From IMG/VR virus record IMGVR_UViG_3300029305_003246, positions 1 through 64,000 of that record: a stretch of 64,000 nt of DNA. One strand, given 5' to 3'. A program made the translations under genes and the position numbers. Source of the stretch: a virus (taxonomy: Duplodnaviria > Caudoviricetes). This document shows, piece after piece, positions 4,288-54,402 of the stretch. Position 1 is the stretch's first letter, and every line of letters starts with the position of its first letter. A model generated the notes under the pieces. It was given only the letters and a program-made list of their open reading frames with translations, ran no database searches and was not told where the DNA came from.

Positions 4288-6522
4288 ATGGCCGATTTTA
4301 CTTACACTCATTATTGTGGGTATAAAAAGATTAATCCAGAGTGGAATAAAGATTTAAAGACTATATTAGTTCGTAACTATAAAGAATTAAAATATCTATT
4401 ATTTGATAAATATAAAGATTGTAAGTTCGCAGGGTTCGATACTGAGACTACAGGGTTAGACCCTCAAGCGAAAGATGCCGATTTAGTTGGTTACTCTTTC
4501 ACTTATGATGGTAAAAATGGTTATTACGTTCCAGTTAATCATATGGGATATAAAACTTTAGATGAAACTGATGAAGGTTATAACGATGATGAGTATTTTA
4601 ATTTAGGACCTAATGCTTTTAATTTATTCTATCAAAAGATGCAAACTCATACGAAAACGTTTTTAGCAAATATGATGTTTGACTATAATTATTTAGAGTA
4701 CGTTGGTGCTAAATATGGATATGATTGGAATATGGGTAAATGTCCTTATTATGATATATTTGTTGGATTATTCTTAGCCGATACAAACGTTCCTTTCCCT
4801 AACTTAAAGAAATCTGAGGCTCAATACCTTGGTTGGAATAGGGAAAACTTCGAGGCTACATTAGGTGATTATACCAACTTCGCATATGTCCCTATAGAAA
4901 TGAGTTATCAATATGCAGGATATGATGCTTTAGGGACTTACAATCTAGCACCTATTTCATTAAAATTCTATAAAGAGGCAGGACTTAGTGGTAAACTTGA
5001 TAATGAATTCTTATATGTATTAACTCAATTCTTAAAAAGAGGAGTTCGTTGCGATGTAGATTTAGCAAAGAAAACTCTTAAGGAGCAAGAGGATAGACTT
5101 CTAGAGTTACAAAATGAAATATGGGGTATATTCGGTTATCAATTTAATATAGGGTCAGGTGCACAATTATCTCAAGCATTAACTTCTATAGGCTTTGATA
5201 CAGGTCAACGTACGAAGTCAGGAGCTATGAAAACAGGTATGTATGAGCTTACTATGGCTAATGAAAAACGTGATGAACCTCATCCTATAGTTGACTTAAT
5301 AATAGAATATAAAACTTTAGCAAAATCAATTTCATCTTTCGCAGGTAAGATGGTTGAAGAAGGTGAAAGGTTCTCTGATAATGAAATTCGCTATAACTAT
5401 ACTACATTTAGAGTTCCTACGGGTAGACTTGCATCTTCAGGCGATGGTAAAAATAAATATTTCGCAACTATAAATGTTCAAGCCTTACCGAAACCTCACT
5501 CTAAAATGTGGTACGTTCATCCAGTCGACCCAAGTAATCCTACTTACAAGCATAGTGATTCCGATTCTATTATTTTAGATTGGAGGTTCTCTTTAACTGA
5601 TAAGTCAGATTATATGACTGAGGCTCTAGACCCACATTACTCTATAAGAAATATGTCGTTACCAGATGAAGGTCATTATTGGGTATCTATGGACTACTCA
5701 GCACAAGAGTTAAGAGCTATAGCAAACTTCTCTAATATACCATTTTGGAAGGATACTTTCATAAATGGTGGTGACCTTCACGAAAGAACGGCAAAAATGA
5801 TATGGGGTGAAGAGAACTATAATCACGACTTAAGAAAAAGAGCCAAAGGTGCGAACTTCGGTCTATCTTATGGAATGGCTTATCAAACAGCAGCAGAGAG
5901 TTTCAAATTACCACTTGAAGAAGCGAAAGAGCTTGTCGATGGTTGGTGGTCAGTATGTAAGGAACTAAAACAATCTCAAGATGCAGCAATTCGTAAGGCT
6001 AAAAAGACTGGAACTGTATATAACTACTTCGGTAGACCTAGAAGAGTTAAAGCCTACTTTGATTCTGCAGATAGACGTCAAATAGCTTTCGGTGAACGTA
6101 CTGTAAAAAATACAGTTATACAATCTGTAGGAGCCGACTTATGTAAAAGAGCTTGTATTAAGTATTACAAAGAGATGTGCCTTAATCCTAAATATGCAGG
6201 AAAGCATAGATTCTTATCTACTATCCACGATGAAATCAATATATCCGTATCTTATGAAGATAGAGACTTATTCTATGAAATGGTAAGAAAATTCCATGAT
6301 ATAATGTATGTTAAAGTCCCAGGATGGGATGTACCATTTGCAGTTGGTATAGAGCTTGGAAATCGTTGGGGCGATTCATTCGTATTTAAGTACGATGAAA
6401 ATAATAACCTTGTACCAGATATGTTCAAGGTACAACCTAAGAAAGAAGAACCTAAAAAAGAGGTTAAAAAGGTAGTTAAAAAAGAAGAAGTTGAGGATTT
6501 CGGTTTCGATATTTCCTTCTAA
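4288..6522 (+). CDS. polA: family A DNA polymerase with 3'-5' exonuclease domain
   Basis: FDTETTG and YAGYD (exonuclease), TGRLAS, DYSAQELR (motif A), RKRAKGANFGLSYG (motif B), IHDEI (motif C). Confidence 0.95.
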   Translation: MADFTYTHYCGYKKINPEWNKDLKTILVRNYKELKYLLFDKYKDCKFAGFDTETTGLDPQAKDADLVGYSFTYDGKNGYYVPVNHMGYKTLDETDEGYNDDEYFNLGPNAFNLFYQKMQTHTKTFLANMMFDYNYLEYVGAKYGYDWNMGKCPYYDIFVGLFLADTNVPFPNLKKSEAQYLGWNRENFEATLGDYTNFAYVPIEMSYQYAGYDALGTYNLAPISLKFYKEAGLSGKLDNEFLYVLTQFLKRGVRCDVDLAKKTLKEQEDRLLELQNEIWGIFGYQFNIGSGAQLSQALTSIGFDTGQRTKSGAMKTGMYELTMANEKRDEPHPIVDLIIEYKTLAKSISSFAGKMVEEGERFSDNEIRYNYTTFRVPTGRLASSGDGKNKYFATINVQALPKPHSKMWYVHPVDPSNPTYKHSDSDSIILDWRFSLTDKSDYMTEALDPHYSIRNMSLPDEGHYWVSMDYSAQELRAIANFSNIPFWKDTFINGGDLHERTAKMIWGEENYNHDLRKRAKGANFGLSYGMAYQTAAESFKLPLEEAKELVDGWWSVCKELKQSQDAAIRKAKKTGTVYNYFGRPRRVKAYFDSADRRQIAFGERTVKNTVIQSVGADLCKRACIKYYKEMCLNPKYAGKHRFLSTIHDEINISVSYEDRDLFYEMVRKFHDIMYVKVPGWDVPFAVGIELGNRWGDSFVFKYDENNNLVPDMFKVQPKKEEPKKEVKKVVKKEEVEDFGFDISF

Positions 6523-6553
6523 GACGAGTTCATTAGACTCGTCTTTTTTCGTT
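6521..6553 (+). terminator. terminator/promoter cassette (GTTCA-N17-CGTT)
   Basis: AAGACGAGT-TCATTAG-ACTCGTCTT-TTTT-CGTT. Confidence 0.75.
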
Positions 6554-6587
6554 TATATTCAATGAAAACGGGTTAAAGGAGGTTCAT

Positions 6588-33263: not shown

Positions 33264-34910
33264 ATGAAATGGAAATATTATTGGTGGAAGTTTAGACAAG
33301 AGTTTTTGGGTGGTTGGGAAGTAATTAAAGAGCTTTGGAGTGAAATAGATATAATCGAAGATGTCAAAGCTACTTATAATAGACTAAAAGAGGATGACGA
33401 ATATGAAGCTTTACAAAACCGTTATCGTAAGAAAGAGATACTACACAAGGGCGATATAATAACTTTTAGAAATCCTCATTGCTATGGCAATGAAATTGTA
33501 GCAAAAGTAGTAAATGTCTATAAGAGTTTTTGTTACGATAAAATGGTAGTTGATATAATAGTTCTATCTTCAGCTCTACATGAAAAAGACACTTTATTAG
33601 CATTTCCTCAAGATGATATAATGAATAATATTATCCAAATGGGAGGTACTTTTTAATGAATAGTGATTTAGAGTATTTTAATAAAATAGAAGAGATGTTT
33701 AATGATAGCAAATTCTGTGATGAAGAAATTGATATTCTATTCCATTACATGTCTTGTCATATTAATAATAGTGTTTATGAATGCATATTCTTAGATGAAT
33801 ATGAAAATATAAGGGGCACTAGAAAGCATAAAGATATTCTAAAAGCAATTAATGATATGTATAATGAATATAAAAATTTATAGGAGGTAACCTTATGAAA
33901 ACTAAAAAAGAGTATTATGAATTTGCCGATACTGAAGCAAGAGAAATAGCTTTAGCAATGCGACCTTGTTTTGCATCTTATAGTCCTACTTCTTACGTTA
34001 AAAGATTCGCCGATAAAAGATATGAAACTTGGGTCTTAACTCTAAAAGATAAAGATATAGTAATACCTTCTGATATACAAGATAAAGTCCATAGAGTATT
34101 TGTCTCAACGTTTACTAATGTAATAAAAGATTATATAGAATCGTTACCTAAGACGACTAATCCTTATGTTTTAAAAGTCTTAAATAAAAAGGAGGGCAAA
34201 TAATATGGTAATACTTAATAGAGATGCATATTGTGATTATTGTGGAGCTTATCTTCCAGATAAAGATGATTTTGTAGAATTTAGACGATATTGTTATTGT
34301 GATATAGATTGTTGGGAAAAATACTTAGTGAAAAACTCCATCCGTTATCCTTACGGGGTACTATTCGGTGATGAAATGTATAACTCATTTGACCACCTAT
34401 ATATAGAATGTTACGATGAAACAATTCAGAGATGATAATTTACATCTCTGAATTTTATGTGTATAAGAAAAATAAAAAGCTAAAATAATAAAGACGTAAA
34501 TATTAGAGGAGGATGATATGCATATGTCAATTAATCCAAGTTTAATAGTGTATATAGATATTATGAATAATACTGAATTACATTTAGAGGTTCTATCGTA
34601 TGATGACGAATATGTTCACGCATTAGAAGTAGGCAATCCATTTGAATATTCCTTTAATGAATATGGCGATATGGATTTATTACAAAAGTTTACTAAAGAC
34701 GAAGAGTATAGCGAAGGTGAGTTCTTCCTATACGACGAAGAGTTATACATTGTAGACGATTACTCTTATCACTCAGGGAGTATATTTGCTAGAAAAGTTC
34801 ATAATGCAGTTTCTATTCCTTTAACGGATGTTGAAATCATCGAAGAATTTGATGATTTCTGTGATTACTATATATCACAAGACAAACTTATTTACAATAA
34901 GGAGGTATAG
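33264..34910 (+). other. cluster of five small hypothetical CDS (33264-33656, 33656-33883, 33895-34203, 34205-34435 Cys-rich, 34518-34910)
   Basis: consecutive + strand ORFs with RBSs. Confidence 0.55.
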
Positions 34911-34911
34911 A

Positions 34912-35718
34912 ATGGATAATAATGAATTTTTATTCGAGGGTATGGTTGAACGTATGAATACCGTATCTATTTATAATAAATCACCCTACATCTTATGGGA
35001 ACAGCACGCTACGGAAAGAATATTTAAGCATAGGGATTTCATAAGTATCGCTCAAATACATTCTCTTAATCCTTCTATTATAGAAGAAGATTTAGTAAGA
35101 GAATTAAAGACTAATTATGTAGATATCGAAGTCGAGTGGATGATGGCCAATCCAAAAGTGACGAACACGAAAGTCATGCCACGCTTTCAAGAGGTCAAGT
35201 GGGTCATTCGTAAACCCTATAAATTAACCTACTTCGATAACAGGACTAATAAAAAAGAGACCGTTATGATAGAAGCTACTATGCAAGGCTCATACAATAC
35301 TTTATTTAGTATGAAACATAGAGATGCAGTGAAAAACATATGGTATAACACCGAAGGCGACGCCAATATGAAGTTCGACGCCATTAATAGGTTTTTAGCA
35401 TCCAAGTCCCCTACATTCAAGTCAGATATTCTCCAAGGTAGATTAGGATTTAATAAGCCTTACCTATTTATAGAAACATTTGTCCTAGCACTTATACATC
35501 CGACGAAGTTTCCTATTACATTCTCAGGTGCATCGAAGGACGGCAAGAATGTAAAATGGACGTACTATAACACGACGCCTAAACATATAGATGTTACCTT
35601 CTATCAATATATGACTATGTATAAAAAGGCACGAGGTTTAGTTAAAATGAAAGGCTTAATAGACCTAGTTCCAGCGAAAGAAATCAAACAGTTAATAGAC
35701 GCTAACAAGGAGGAATAA
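34912..35718 (+). CDS. hypothetical protein
   Basis: AAGGAGGT RBS places the start at 34912. Confidence 0.6.
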   Translation: MDNNEFLFEGMVERMNTVSIYNKSPYILWEQHATERIFKHRDFISIAQIHSLNPSIIEEDLVRELKTNYVDIEVEWMMANPKVTNTKVMPRFQEVKWVIRKPYKLTYFDNRTNKKETVMIEATMQGSYNTLFSMKHRDAVKNIWYNTEGDANMKFDAINRFLASKSPTFKSDILQGRLGFNKPYLFIETFVLALIHPTKFPITFSGASKDGKNVKWTYYNTTPKHIDVTFYQYMTMYKKARGLVKMKGLIDLVPAKEIKQLIDANKEE

Positions 35719-51277: not shown

Positions 51278-52201
51278 ATGAGAATATTAGAATTAAATAA
51301 CCTAAAAGTAAATGAAGTAATTAGAGGTTATGCTCTAATTACTTCTTATTCAGTTGCAAGTTATGGCAACCAAGGTAAGTCTAGAGCATTAGGCTCATTA
51401 CAAACGAAGGATAAGTCCATCGAGTGGACGGCATTCGATACTAAGGTAGTCGAATATTTTTCTAGTATGGAGATAAATAATATACTATGTATAGACGCAA
51501 AAGTGAGCGAGTATAATGGGAAGTTATCTCTAGTAATTAATAAGATAGATTTCGAGCCTACTACTTTAACTAAATATGATTTTATGAAGTCAGTTGAAGT
51601 TGGTAGCCTATGTCAAGGTTTACTATATGGAGTTCAGCAGCATCTATCTCCTAATTATCAAAGAGTATTCTCCGTTCTATTAAGGGACTATAGAAAGGAA
51701 TACACTCGTACTTATGCAGGAGCGAAGTATCACGATGCACTTATTGGTGGTCTACTTAATCACTCATATAAGATGTTTAGAATAGCTTTAATACTTCTAG
51801 ATAATGACCCACGATTAGAACCTTTTAAAGACGAGCTTTTACTCGGTACTTTAATACACGACTTTGGTAAGGTTATCGAGCTTAATATAAATAAGTACAC
51901 TAAGAACTCCTTCGTTACTCATAGAACGTTAGGCATTGAAATATTAGCTTTAAGAAGGGATGAGATAGTCCCATGTATAGGCGAAGATGCATATTACAGG
52001 TTGTTGGCCATAGTCCAAGGTCATCACGGGGAGCAGTGGGGAGATGCACCGACTACTATGATTACCCAAGTAGTACATTATATTGACCTTCTAGAAAGTC
52101 AAACTACAGGTTTCCTTGATATCATCGAGAACGAAGCATACCAAGTCCAAGATAATGGCAATAAAGTAATCAAGCATGGAGGGAATAACTTAGTAATTTA
52201 G
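51278..52201 (+). CDS. yhaM: YhaM/Cbf1-like 3'-5' exoribonuclease (OB + HD)
   Basis: N-terminal OB, AKYHDA..GGLLNHS, LIHDFGK, H, HHG, VHYID. Confidence 0.85.
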   Translation: MRILELNNLKVNEVIRGYALITSYSVASYGNQGKSRALGSLQTKDKSIEWTAFDTKVVEYFSSMEINNILCIDAKVSEYNGKLSLVINKIDFEPTTLTKYDFMKSVEVGSLCQGLLYGVQQHLSPNYQRVFSVLLRDYRKEYTRTYAGAKYHDALIGGLLNHSYKMFRIALILLDNDPRLEPFKDELLLGTLIHDFGKVIELNINKYTKNSFVTHRTLGIEILALRRDEIVPCIGEDAYYRLLAIVQGHHGEQWGDAPTTMITQVVHYIDLLESQTTGFLDIIENEAYQVQDNGNKVIKHGGNNLVI

Positions 52202-52254
52202 TTCATGTATCTAAAGAAAAACGTTTTATATAATAAGTAAATAAGCTAAAGGAG

Positions 52255-52386
52255 ATGATTACAGCAGAACCGTTAAAGAGGGTTACTAAAGAAGTTGATA
52301 TAAGAGATAAATATTGGAAGATAGCCGAAGATATTTGGTGCATAATATTTTGGGCAGGTGTCATAGGATACTTCTTTTTTAAATAA
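52255..52386 (+). CDS. small membrane peptide (43 aa, not in ORF track)
   Basis: AAAGGAG RBS; C-terminal hydrophobic segment. Confidence 0.45.
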   Translation: MITAEPLKRVTKEVDIRDKYWKIAEDIWCIIFWAGVIGYFFFK

Positions 52387-52408: not shown

Positions 52409-52985
52409 ATGAATAAAAAATTAAGAACTTTATTATTAGCAGGATTACTTACTTTAGGGATGAGTACCATAGCATTTGCAAATGAAAGCGAATTGCCAGC
52501 AGTTTCTACATCTACGATTACTCATCCAAAATTCGAAGATGGCAAAAGAGTTGTAGAACTTCAAGGTGGACTTATTATAGTTGATATGACGGAAAAAGAA
52601 AATGGCGAGTATGATATAGTAGTAAAATGGAAAGGTGAAAGCATAAAAAATCTTAGGTGTTAAATCTATTTATGAAAAAGGAACTATAGACCATACGAAC
52701 TACTTTGAAGAGTTATATCATTGTAATACATTAGGACAAGAAGGCGAGTTCGTCTTTGGCAAAGTTCTAGGTGGTGGACAAGGATTCTCAGGACCTCTTG
52801 GTAAGTTAGTTGAAGTTGAAATTACTTTTGAAAATCTTACTAAAGGTGGCAACCCAACAGACCCTAAAGAGCCAGATGAAGAAATAGACGACCCAGCTAC
52901 AGGTGACGCGACTACTATAGGGTTCTTAGTTGCAGGAGCATTAGCCACTTTAGGATTATGCACATTAAAGAAAGATGAAGAATAA
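52409..52985 (+). pseudogene. sortase-anchored surface protein, frameshifted at an A6 run (52645-52650)
   Basis: signal peptide (..AFA); removing one A gives a 191-aa ORF ending DPATGD + TM + KK. Confidence 0.75.
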
Positions 52986-53107
52986 GCCAGTCTTGGAATA
53001 TAGACAACAAATATTGAAAGTCCTATAATAAGGACAACAAATAAGGTATAAGAGGTGAGTTCATTACTCACCTCTTTTTTCGTTCTTCTAAATAAAAAGG
53101 TGATTAT

Positions 53108-53782
53108 ATGAATAAGAAAGTTAGAAAATTAATCTCAAATTTATTAGTAGCAACCTTGAGTATATCTGCTTGGGAATTAGGCAAGAAGCAATATGGTTAT
53201 TTGGAAAACCGTAAGACTTATTCTACTATACAAAAGCAAAAGGATAATACAGGTGATGTTCAAGCTTATCTAAAGGAGCATAATTTCGATTGGATACAAG
53301 TTACGGGTACAGCTATCGACTATACTCTTATGGTAGCAGAAGATAATAACTATTATCTAACCCACGACTATAAAGGTGAGTCAAGCTCAGGTGGTGCTAT
53401 TTATTATGACGCCAGTGATGTCCCTTACAACGGAAGCAATACTGTCATATTTGGCCATTCTATGAGGGATGGTTCTATGTTTAATAACTTACATTACTTC
53501 CAAAAGGACCATAAGCGATTCCAAGAATCCGTTCTAACTATAAGCACGGCCGAAGGTGAAACTAAATACTACCCATTAGCATATTATGTTACTCAAGATA
53601 ATTTTTTCCATAAGGATGTTGATAATATGCCGATAGACGAAGCTCTAAAGGTAATCGAAAGGGATACTAACTATTATATAAAGGATACAAACTATTCATC
53701 CGACTCTCATATAATAGTCCTTTATACTTGTGACTATAGCATAGAAGATGGTCGATTAATAGTATTCTACATTTCTAAATAG
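53108..53782 (+). CDS. srtB: class B sortase
   Basis: N-terminal TM, WIQVTGTAIDY, DNNYYL, GAIYYD, IFGHSMRDGSMF, VLYTC, GRLIV. Confidence 0.92.
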   Translation: MNKKVRKLISNLLVATLSISAWELGKKQYGYLENRKTYSTIQKQKDNTGDVQAYLKEHNFDWIQVTGTAIDYTLMVAEDNNYYLTHDYKGESSSGGAIYYDASDVPYNGSNTVIFGHSMRDGSMFNNLHYFQKDHKRFQESVLTISTAEGETKYYPLAYYVTQDNFFHKDVDNMPIDEALKVIERDTNYYIKDTNYSSDSHIIVLYTCDYSIEDGRLIVFYISK

Positions 53783-53793
53783 GAGGTACTTTT

Positions 53794-54402
53794 ATGATTA
53801 ATATCCTACTTTCGACGTATAACTTTAATAGTGAGGATTGCTTTCCTCTTTTAAAATACATTCTAGAACCAGGGATGCAAGTTTGTATTCTCCCATATTC
53901 GCATGATGAAGTTTTGTATAGTGATTATGATAAGTTCGATTGGGTCTACGATTATGATGACCCTTCTAGCGATTATCATGCTATAGCAAGAGCCTACAAA
54001 GATTATGGCATAGAAAAAATTCGTATAGTACACCCAAAAGATAATCTATCTATGATAGAGGATAAGATTAGGAAGTCCGATATATTATTCTTTACAGGGG
54101 GCAACCCAGTTCAAGCTATGGAACGAATGGAGCCCATTATTCCTATATTAAAAGACTATGACGGCATAGTGATGGGAGCCAGTGCAGGTGCTATGGTTCA
54201 AGTAAAAGAGTTTGTTATAGACGGCGAAGGATATCCTTATTCCTACTATAAGGGATTAGGATTTATCAAGTACGATATGGATGTGATTGTCCACTATAAT
54301 GCCGACCCACATCTAAAATCTATTATAAGAAGAAGCTTAGATGAACGACCTCTAACTAAAATATATGCGATAAAAGATGGTGAATGTTTAATAATTTATT
54401 AG
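53794..54402 (+). CDS. peptidase S51 (PepE-like) family protein
   Basis: DILFFTGGN, GASAGAM, GLGF, VHY. Confidence 0.85.
   Translation: MINILLSTYNFNSEDCFPLLKYILEPGMQVCILPYSHDEVLYSDYDKFDWVYDYDDPSSDYHAIARAYKDYGIEKIRIVHPKDNLSMIEDKIRKSDILFFTGGNPVQAMERMEPIIPILKDYDGIVMGASAGAMVQVKEFVIDGEGYPYSYYKGLGFIKYDMDVIVHYNADPHLKSIIRRSLDERPLTKIYAIKDGECLIIY

Follow-up and report, generated by a model that had tools for sequence, protein, structure and literature searches.

A phage-borne class-B-type sortase gene and the frameshifted gene of its putative cell-wall substrate

Introduction

Does a phage carry its own means of fixing a protein to the wall of its host, and how is it to be understood when one of the two genes involved appears to be broken? 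This question is raised by a locus at positions 52409 to 53782 of a 64,000-nucleotide stretch of DNA (the window), which is the first part, positions 1 to 64,000, of the IMG/VR virus record IMGVR_UViG_3300029305_003246. The gene of a predicted sortase is preceded there by an open reading frame (ORF) that begins with a signal peptide and stops early, and the remainder of what looks like a sortase substrate follows in the +1 frame, beyond a run of six adenines (A6). A preliminary description of this DNA had taken it for phage DNA and had proposed that the phage encodes a class B sortase together with its own substrate, the latter possibly subject to phase variation at the A6 run. We compared the locus with related loci, protein families and structural models. 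We read the locus as the phage version of a conserved surface-display cassette of two genes, and the A6 run as a genuine mutation that recently deprived an accessory gene of its function, not as a regulated switch; we give this reading a probability of roughly 0.6.

Results

The substrate gene is interrupted at a run of six adenines

The elements of the locus are as follows.

52409..52663, + strand: truncated 5′ part of the substrate gene, with the predicted signal peptide (52409-52480), the first four strands of a modelled beta-sandwich, the out-of-frame residues NLRC and a stop codon
52645..52650, + strand: A6 run, the frameshift site, as placed by DNA alignment, by the junction in the related contig L036 and by direct reading of the letters (AAAAAA)
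52650..52985, + strand: 3′ part of the substrate gene in the +1 frame, with the rest of the beta-sandwich, a Pro/acidic linker and the sorting signal
52890-52904, + strand: DPATG motif within the 3′ part
52908-52967, + strand: hydrophobic segment within the 3′ part
52968-52982, + strand: KKDEE tail, followed by the stop codon at 52983-52985
53108..53782, + strand: intact gene of a class-B-type sortase of 224 amino acids, with an N-terminal membrane anchor and the predicted catalytic residues His117, Cys208 and Arg216

The ORF at 52409-52663 encodes 84 amino acids, reading MNKKLRTLLLAGLLTLGMSTIAFA/NE at its N-terminus (the stroke marks the cleavage site) and ...GESIKNLRC before the stop codon. 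By sequence pattern, its signal peptide consists of a basic n-region and a hydrophobic core that lead up to an AFA cleavage site; the order MNKKLRT, then LLLAGLLTLGMSTI, then AFA/NE is conserved across the substrate family, and an N-terminal Sec signal peptide is predicted for the substrate. An open +1 frame runs from 52647 to 52985, starting with KILGVKSIYEKG and ending with IDDPATGDATTIGFLVAGALATLGLCTLKKDEE before the stop codon, its C-terminal stretch reading ...PDEEIDDPATGDATTIGFLVAGALATLGLCTLKKDEE. When one base of the run is skipped, the two pieces combine into a read-through protein of 191 amino acids (P0226), the end of which carries IDDPATGD, a hydrophobic helix and KKDEE. The record itself holds no uninterrupted frame from signal peptide to sorting signal, the break lying at 52645-52650; the same frame is intact in three related loci (L005, L006 and L036) and in nearly all database homologues. 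The program-made ORF track leaves a gap of 444 nucleotides and misses the 3′ part of the gene, because no start codon in the +1 frame opens an ORF of at least 30 amino acids. In these respects our analysis bears out the preliminary description, which had noted that the ORF at 52409 has a signal peptide and stops early (the 84-residue translation agrees), that one A less joins it to a frame with an xPxTG motif, and that the ORF track misses the substrate.

Intact relatives support the join of the two frames

The loci used for comparison were L005 (104 kb) and L006 (98 kb) from IMG/VR, the metagenome contig L036, and four further IMG/VR contigs of 128-227 kb, L009 to L012 (L009, 216 kb; L011 and L012, 227 and 202 kb), which were obtained by a search with the substrate alignment. 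The IMG/VR loci came to light through the substrate or its alignment; the sortase as a single query returned nothing from IMG/VR. The homologue P0034 is 96% identical to the upstream piece over its residues 1-80 and 86% identical to the downstream piece over residues 81-192, the closest homologues are 90-92% identical to the read-through protein, and intact homologues align with it residue for residue across the join. One of them, P0230 (intact, 90% identical), is encoded on a contig of 127 kb. At the DNA level, the junction in the window, GCAT-AAAAAA-TC (GCATAAAAAATC), has exactly one A more than that of intact relatives. The corresponding tract is A5 in L005 (GTAT-AAAAA-TA) and in L036 (GCAT-AAAAA-TA, GCATAAAAATAT) and A4 in L006 (GTAT-AAAAG-TA), and the gene is whole in all three of these related genomes, where the preliminary description had suggested that A5 and A6 be compared. 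Scans of metagenome and viral contigs with degenerate junction patterns gave 45 stretches, among them only one new true relative (L036, with A5), and the relatives that these scans returned were all distant. Since the tract differs by a single base and both pieces match intact homologues, the allele in the window is a +1-base derivative of an A5 ancestor, and the alignments show that the join of the two frames is not a matter of chance.

The downstream piece also resembles a sorting signal in its own right. It scores 20.2 bits against the Pfam family Gram_pos_anchor (PF00746; cut-off 20) and 15.7 bits against the NCBIfam LPXTG anchor family TIGR01167, just below the cut-off of 15.9, and it presents DPATG, a 20-residue hydrophobic stretch and KKDEE before the stop codon in the order found in sorting signals. 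A database search with the intact protein returned 155 substrate homologues, nearly all of 190-210 amino acids (most of them around 195) and all of them metagenomic. In two family alignments (30 and 40 sequences) the T-G-D that follows P-x never varies, and at least 90% of the sequences have the P; DPETGD occurs in 82 and DPATGD in 9 of the 120 homologues listed, so that the shared family motif can be written [DE]PxTGD. It is followed throughout the family by about 20 hydrophobic residues and then by a tail such as NKKDDEE. This tail, K/R-K-K and then three or four acidic residues (KKDEE, KKDDEE), is conserved family-wide and is net acidic. No other frame with a sorting signal was found in the 135-kb genome, the sole other match to the regular expression being a 43-residue artefact on the minus strand. 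The substrate family was not found in reference bacterial genomes by a weak search with a single peptide pattern.

The downstream gene encodes a divergent class-B-type sortase

The product of 53108-53782 matches the Pfam family Sortase (PF04203) with 38.5 bits against a cut-off of 26.6 (E-value 1.1e-9) and the class B family TIGR03064 (sortase_srtB) with 107.8 bits over profile positions 2-235 of 235. The predicted catalytic residues His117 (in GHSM), Cys208 (in LYTCDY) and Arg216 (in GRLIV) align with the motifs of Bacillus anthracis SrtB; in 26 aligned sortase homologues His and Cys never vary, and Arg is kept in at least 90%. The best sequence matches in the PDB are all SrtB proteins (B. 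anthracis 1rz2, E-value 8.5e-22, and also 5jcv, 5b23 and 4ux7), and the species among these best solved relatives are B. anthracis, Listeria monocytogenes, Clostridium perfringens and Clostridioides difficile.

An AlphaFold2 model of the sortase (mean predicted local distance difference test score, pLDDT, 88.3) has a long N-terminal anchor helix. Its best fold match by Foldseek is C. difficile SrtB, 4ux7 (E-value 6.9e-17; template modelling, TM, scores 0.70/0.76), and ranks 1-16 are all class B, from 4ux7 to 4y4q (5.3e-11), with classes C, A, F and D following from 1.2e-6. In the protein database the phage sortase belongs to a tight clade of 105 proteins, at the edge of which the E-value worsens from 1e-43 to 1e-12 for the first proteins outside it. 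In reference bacterial genomes the sortase alignment matched cellular SrtB proteins only, all of them from Bacillota, with 24-35% identity over long alignments and up to 42% on short segments; this search gave no prophage copy and no host assignment. By sequence and by modelled fold, then, the gene encodes a divergent class-B-type sortase, a predicted enzyme, as the preliminary description had recognised in calling it an intact SrtB.

The pairing of substrate and sortase is conserved

The order of substrate gene followed by sortase gene is kept in seven further contigs (L005, L006, L009, L010, L011, L012 and L036). In L005, L006 and L036 an intact substrate homologue of 195 amino acids is followed about 50 nucleotides downstream by the sortase gene. 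The substrates of L009 to L012 have a signal peptide of the form MNKK[IVL][KR]SLL[IV]AGLLV... and a sorting signal of like kind, and lie directly before a sortase that ends in ...GRL[IV]VFYISE, while differing among themselves in the passenger (174, 197 and 284 amino acids in total length, with 174 in L009). In L011 and L012 the 284-residue substrate (5001-5855) carries TPGTGQ, and the sortase (5900-6562), which ends in ...GDRLFVFYISE, is the most divergent of the set, with 39% identity. As this deviating motif is paired with the most divergent enzyme, co-variation of motif and enzyme is hinted at. The pairing is real and is conserved in phage contigs of 98-227 kb, which upholds the proposal that the sortase is paired with its own substrate. 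On the basis of these sequence comparisons, the view that the broken gene upstream encodes the dedicated substrate of the sortase is supported.

The passenger is predicted to be a small beta-sandwich

P0238, the closest intact relative of the read-through protein, was modelled with AlphaFold from an alignment of 40 homologues. The model has a beta-sandwich at residues ~30-145 with pLDDT above 90, and its signal peptide, linker and anchor are disordered. The frameshift at codon 80 falls inside the strand formed by residues 79-88 of this 115-residue passenger, and the 84-residue product holds less than half of the domain. With the break inside a strand of a confidently modelled sandwich, the fragment should not fold.

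Structural comparison of the passenger gave little guidance. Foldseek found no match in the PDB at an E-value of 0.001 or better (the top match, a NEAT domain, had an E-value of 0.033 and TM scores of 0.23/0.33), a wide VIA-align search reached at best a Z-score of 5.9, within noise, for TRAF-like, Ig-like and carbohydrate-binding-module-like sandwiches, and the ESM Atlas gave no usable match. Identities as a NEAT domain, a cohesin or a carbohydrate-binding module were dropped on the strength of the Foldseek E-value of 0.033 and the VIA-align Z-score of 5.9, and the modelled passenger is best described as a generic beta-sandwich without an informative structural match. Among relatives that are at least ~85% identical, the N-terminal half of the substrate is nearly invariant, and almost all the variation in the folded domain clusters at residues ~107-130 (in the numbering of the 192-residue protein; window positions 52728-52799), as in LGQEGEFVFGKVLGGGQGFSG versus IEQEGEFFKGTVSGGGDGVSG. 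Judging by its variability, this stretch could be a ligand-binding loop.

The sixth adenine is probably genuine and recent

We regard the A6 allele as probably real. The exact 84-residue product occurs on seven contigs, which come from three collections assembled with different programs (JGI/IMG, Logan and ENA), whereas the exact read-through protein, the A5 twin, occurs on none in a collection of 15 billion proteins; the exact neighbouring proteins were found on 9, 10, 12, 13 and 9 contigs, with 12 for the sortase. Every assembly of this strain on record thus called the A6 form. Although the genome contains over 200 runs of at least six identical bases (145 A6, 13 A7 and 55 T6), no other gap hides a long frame and no other gene looks broken, so the assembly is not prone to homopolymer errors; nor is A6 a hard tract in short-read data. 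These points argue against a sequencing or assembly error, under which the real phage would have A5 and an intact, working substrate. Such an error would nevertheless be of the classic type, a single-base difference in a homopolymer, and it would explain that the downstream frame is perfectly kept, with a sorting signal identical to that of P0238, and that the sortase is intact. Taking into account that the seven contigs need not be independent, we consider an error unlikely, though deserving of more attention than any of the other alternatives.

A second frameshift candidate at 34500-34910 was rejected, as it proved to be an ordinary ORF of 130 amino acids (34518-34910). This ORF overlaps the first 83 nucleotides of the longest reading of the next one (34828-35718), the true start of which is probably an internal Met.

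The break must be recent: the 111 codons downstream of it contain no stop, the sorting signal does not differ from that of P0238 at any position, and unique substitutions are few. The read-through protein has four of these (one before the break and three after it) and a one-residue deletion in the linker, where relatives have 0-2 unique substitutions, counts that are too small to decide on relaxed selection. Broken alleles also occur elsewhere in the substrate family, since P0043 (154 amino acids; on eight contigs of up to 69.7 kb) carries an independent truncation, ending in ...GDEPVVHQ within the Pro-rich linker before the sorting signal. The C-terminal tails of P0233 and P0084 are altered, and broken or anchor-less variants thus recur in the family.

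Some observations weigh against a recent, genuine loss in a sortase-substrate cassette. The seven contigs with the 84-residue product may stem from the same or overlapping read sets, which leaves room for a systematic error. An intact sortase without an intact phage substrate would be odd if the break were old, and decay is minimal, given that unique substitutions are only slightly in excess after the break. As to the cassette itself, the KKDEE tail is net acidic, unlike the tails of classical sorting signals, and the sortase misses the equivalog cut-off of TIGR03064 (107.8 versus 153.75 bits).

The preliminary description had further suggested that the A5/A6 tract may be a reversible switch for surface display. 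Slippage in a homopolymer can in principle be reversed, the downstream frame is intact, and truncated or altered alleles exist elsewhere in the family (P0043, P0233 and P0084). However, the tract is short, contingency tracts usually having at least 7-8 bases, and A5 and A4 in the relatives arise purely from the coding of Ile-Lys-Ile as ATA-AAA-AT in an AT-rich genome. No truncation at the tract was seen among the 36 close cluster members read or among three shorter matches (P0043 breaks in the linker), and A6 stands on seven contigs with no A5 twin found. Nothing thus supports phase variation, this part of the earlier proposal did not hold up, and we consider reversible switching improbable. 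A working on/off switch, by which populations would keep displaying and non-displaying variants, for example to balance the exclusion of competitors against a cost to the host cell, seems to us if anything a shade less probable. Such a switch, if real, would make this gene the first in a large phage of lytic type to modify the host surface in a phase-variable way.

Some full-length protein could also be made from the A6 allele, which would then be attenuated and not null, if tRNA-Lys slipped by +1 on A_AAA_AAU or if transcription slipped on the run. After such a slip the tRNA can pair again with AAA in the +1 frame, and the protein made would equal the wild type (SIKILG). Against this, no slow codon or stop codon follows the slip site, where the next codon in frame 0 is AAU; the upstream AGGTG lies 8 nucleotides away, compared with about 3 nucleotides for the element that stimulates the prfB +1 shift, and is ordinary coding sequence that is present in unshifted relatives as well; slippage in transcription requires about 8-9 or more identical bases in a row; and the feature is conserved in no relative. 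A programmed +1 frameshift was rejected for want of stimulatory context and conservation, slippage being at most an event at background level, and we hold an attenuated allele to be scarcely credible. It also seems very improbable that the sortase mainly serves host surface proteins or a pilus-like fibre, so that the loss of its neighbour would matter little. An intact sortase beside a broken gene is compatible with such a role, and class B pilus polymerases are among its fold matches (Spy0129, 3psq, and the sortase of the Streptococcus pneumoniae type II pilus, 4y4q). But the substrate gene lies immediately upstream in every relative examined, motif and enzyme appear to co-vary (TPGTGQ with the 39%-identical sortase), no pilin-type YPK lysine is conserved (P0014 and P0049 have A in place of the K of HPKF), and the genome has no second pilin-like gene or sorting signal. 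On balance we prefer a recent, genuine loss of an accessory gene.

Neighbouring genes and candidate promoters

Further features flank the two genes.

52201..52225, + strand: copy of the motif GTTCA-N16/17-CGTW, a candidate promoter upstream of the 43-residue ORF and the substrate gene
52255..52386, + strand: ORF of 43 amino acids with a C-terminal hydrophobic helix; its exact sequence occurs on 10 contigs, and its cluster has 14 members
53050..53084, + strand: terminator-like hairpin of 11 pairs with a T run, between the substrate and sortase genes, holding a GTTCA-N17-CGTT motif
53794..54402, + strand: Peptidase_S51-like gene (Pfam PF03575, E-value 7.8e-12), 11 nucleotides after the sortase gene and before the next GTTCA motif

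The motif GTTCA-N16/17-CGTW is present in 36 copies in the window (2233-63470), all on the + strand, where 0.64 would be expected, and judged by this distribution it is probably the phage's own promoter class. The copies at the cassette lie at 52201, at 53059 (inside the hairpin) and at 54402 (after the Peptidase_S51-like gene). Copies of the motif often sit in terminator-like hairpins just upstream of genes. If the motifs are promoters, substrate and sortase would form separate units of the same class, and the frameshift would not be polar on the sortase.

In L006, L010, L011 and L012 the position of the 43-residue ORF is occupied by a lipoprotein gene (156-159 amino acids with an LSGC or LTGC lipobox; L006:3200-3670, L010:4436-4915, L011 and L012:4447-4926). 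In relatives this gene and an HD-domain gene lie directly upstream of the substrate gene, which suggests a larger envelope-directed module. The Peptidase_S51-like gene (dipeptidase E/cyanophycinase family) lacks a signal peptide and lies inside the GTTCA-bounded unit of the sortase. It is probably co-transcribed with the sortase gene; it was not found after the sortase in L005, L006 or L009 to L012 and is outside the conserved cassette.

The source record

The record from which the window was taken is 135,413 bp long, with direct terminal repeats and a G+C content of ~30%; the whole genome is 93% coding, and in the window the + strand carries all the long ORFs. Genes for a head maturation protease, a DNA polymerase, a ligase, parts of a sliding clamp and a clamp loader are present. 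The record is a large phage; the preliminary description had also taken it for a phage. CheckV estimates its completeness at 67% despite direct terminal repeats at 135 kb, which implies that the nearest reference relatives are phages of ~200 kb. In comparisons with GenBank phages, blastn found no match to the locus and tblastn found none to the substrate; the tblastn matches to the sortase were 24-39% identical and came from prophage-like or faecal fragments.

Discussion

Based on these results we propose the following model. The first gene of the cassette encodes a Sec-exported protein of ~190 amino acids, in which a signal peptide is followed by a beta-sandwich of 115 residues, a Pro/acidic linker and a sorting signal; the second encodes a class-B-type sortase anchored in the membrane. 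Acting as C. difficile SrtB does, the sortase would cut its substrate between T and G and join it to the peptidoglycan of the infected host, a Gram-positive bacterium (Bacillota). In the phage studied here, one A has been inserted into an A5 tract, probably by replication slippage, which puts the gene out of frame from codon 80 onward, in mid-sandwich; the normal frame can yield only the 84-residue fragment, which has no anchor, while the sortase gene stays intact with its own promoter-like motif. The activity of the sortase on the motif, the anchoring to the wall and the biological role are all inferred, and the function of the cassette would be to display a small beta-sandwich on the host wall. 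As to what the display is for, superinfection exclusion, receptor masking and adhesion are guesses. Exclusion has a functional analogy in Llp of T5 and Ltp of the Streptococcus thermophilus phage TP-J34, phage lipoproteins that sit on the outer face of the envelope and block superinfection, but these are lipid-anchored and share no similarity of sequence or fold with the passenger. We know of no exclusion phenotype for any phage sortase substrate and, to our knowledge, no phage sortase has yet been shown to anchor anything.

Cellular class B sortases offer close parallels. C. difficile SrtB cuts SPKTG, PPKTG, SPSTG and SPQTG at the bond between T and G and leaves LPETG and NPQTN uncut, and its native peptides include PVPPKTGDS and SDSPKTGDN (PMC4155245); the (S/P)PxTG preference that the preliminary description had attributed to clostridial SrtB is confirmed by these data for C. 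difficile, with a D following the motif. This enzyme (CD2718; structures 4UX7 and 5GYJ) provides the best fold match to the phage sortase and shares with it an xPxTG motif followed by D (SPKTGD, PPKTGD), yet the two are only ~25% identical in sequence, the first position of the phage motif is D or E where C. difficile has S or P, and the phage tail KKDDEE differs from the purely basic tails of C. difficile (KIKRN, KRRKMKKS; PMC4155245). Moreover, C. difficile encodes its enzyme on the chromosome as a housekeeping sortase that serves about seven substrates, in contrast to the one dedicated substrate in the phage. In this last respect the phage cassette is more like the SrtB-IsdC operons of Staphylococcus aureus and B. 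anthracis, in which a class B sortase lies beside a single dedicated non-LPXTG substrate; however, the motif there is NPQTN or NPKTG and the passenger is a haem-binding NEAT domain, to which the match found here is not credible.

Phage sortase modules of this design have been described by Yuan and Chen (bioRxiv 10.64898/2026.10.24.761521, 24 October 2026), who found 24 SrtB genes in 24 phages of more than 200 kb from animal guts, each preceded by a gene for a substrate of 175-1,047 amino acids with a signal peptide, a variable passenger and a sorting signal in which PXTG is conserved. Their study is purely computational; they state that sortases were previously undocumented in viruses, place the closest cellular sortases in Bacillota, and propose surface display, possibly for receptor masking or interference with superinfection. 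The locus described here agrees with their modules in its class B sortase with His, Cys and Arg and in the PXTG substrate gene immediately upstream, and L009 (216 kb, 174-residue substrate) and L011 and L012 (227 and 202 kb) have the same design. It differs in genome size, which is 135 kb here and 98, 104 and 128 kb in further carriers of the cassette, so that the figure of more than 200 kb is a sampling limit of that study and not a property of the module. It differs also in its interrupted substrate gene, as the text of the preprint mentions no frameshift or pseudogene, and in its passenger, since their long substrates contain SHIRT and FctA domains whereas the small sandwich here matches no known fold family. 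The type of cassette is therefore already known from the October 2026 preprint; the novelty of this locus is that a smaller phage carries a naturally broken copy.

What the locus adds is the presence of the cassette in phages of 98-135 kb, together with the size of a small-substrate family (~155 substrates and 105 sortases), its sharp [DE]PxTGD motif and its unusual acidic tail. More surprising would be a switch at the A run, for which there is no support. The A6 frameshift and the truncation of P0043 are natural null alleles, ready controls for finding out what wall display does for the phage, and the short cassette with its 190-residue substrate would make a convenient test system for anchoring by a phage sortase.

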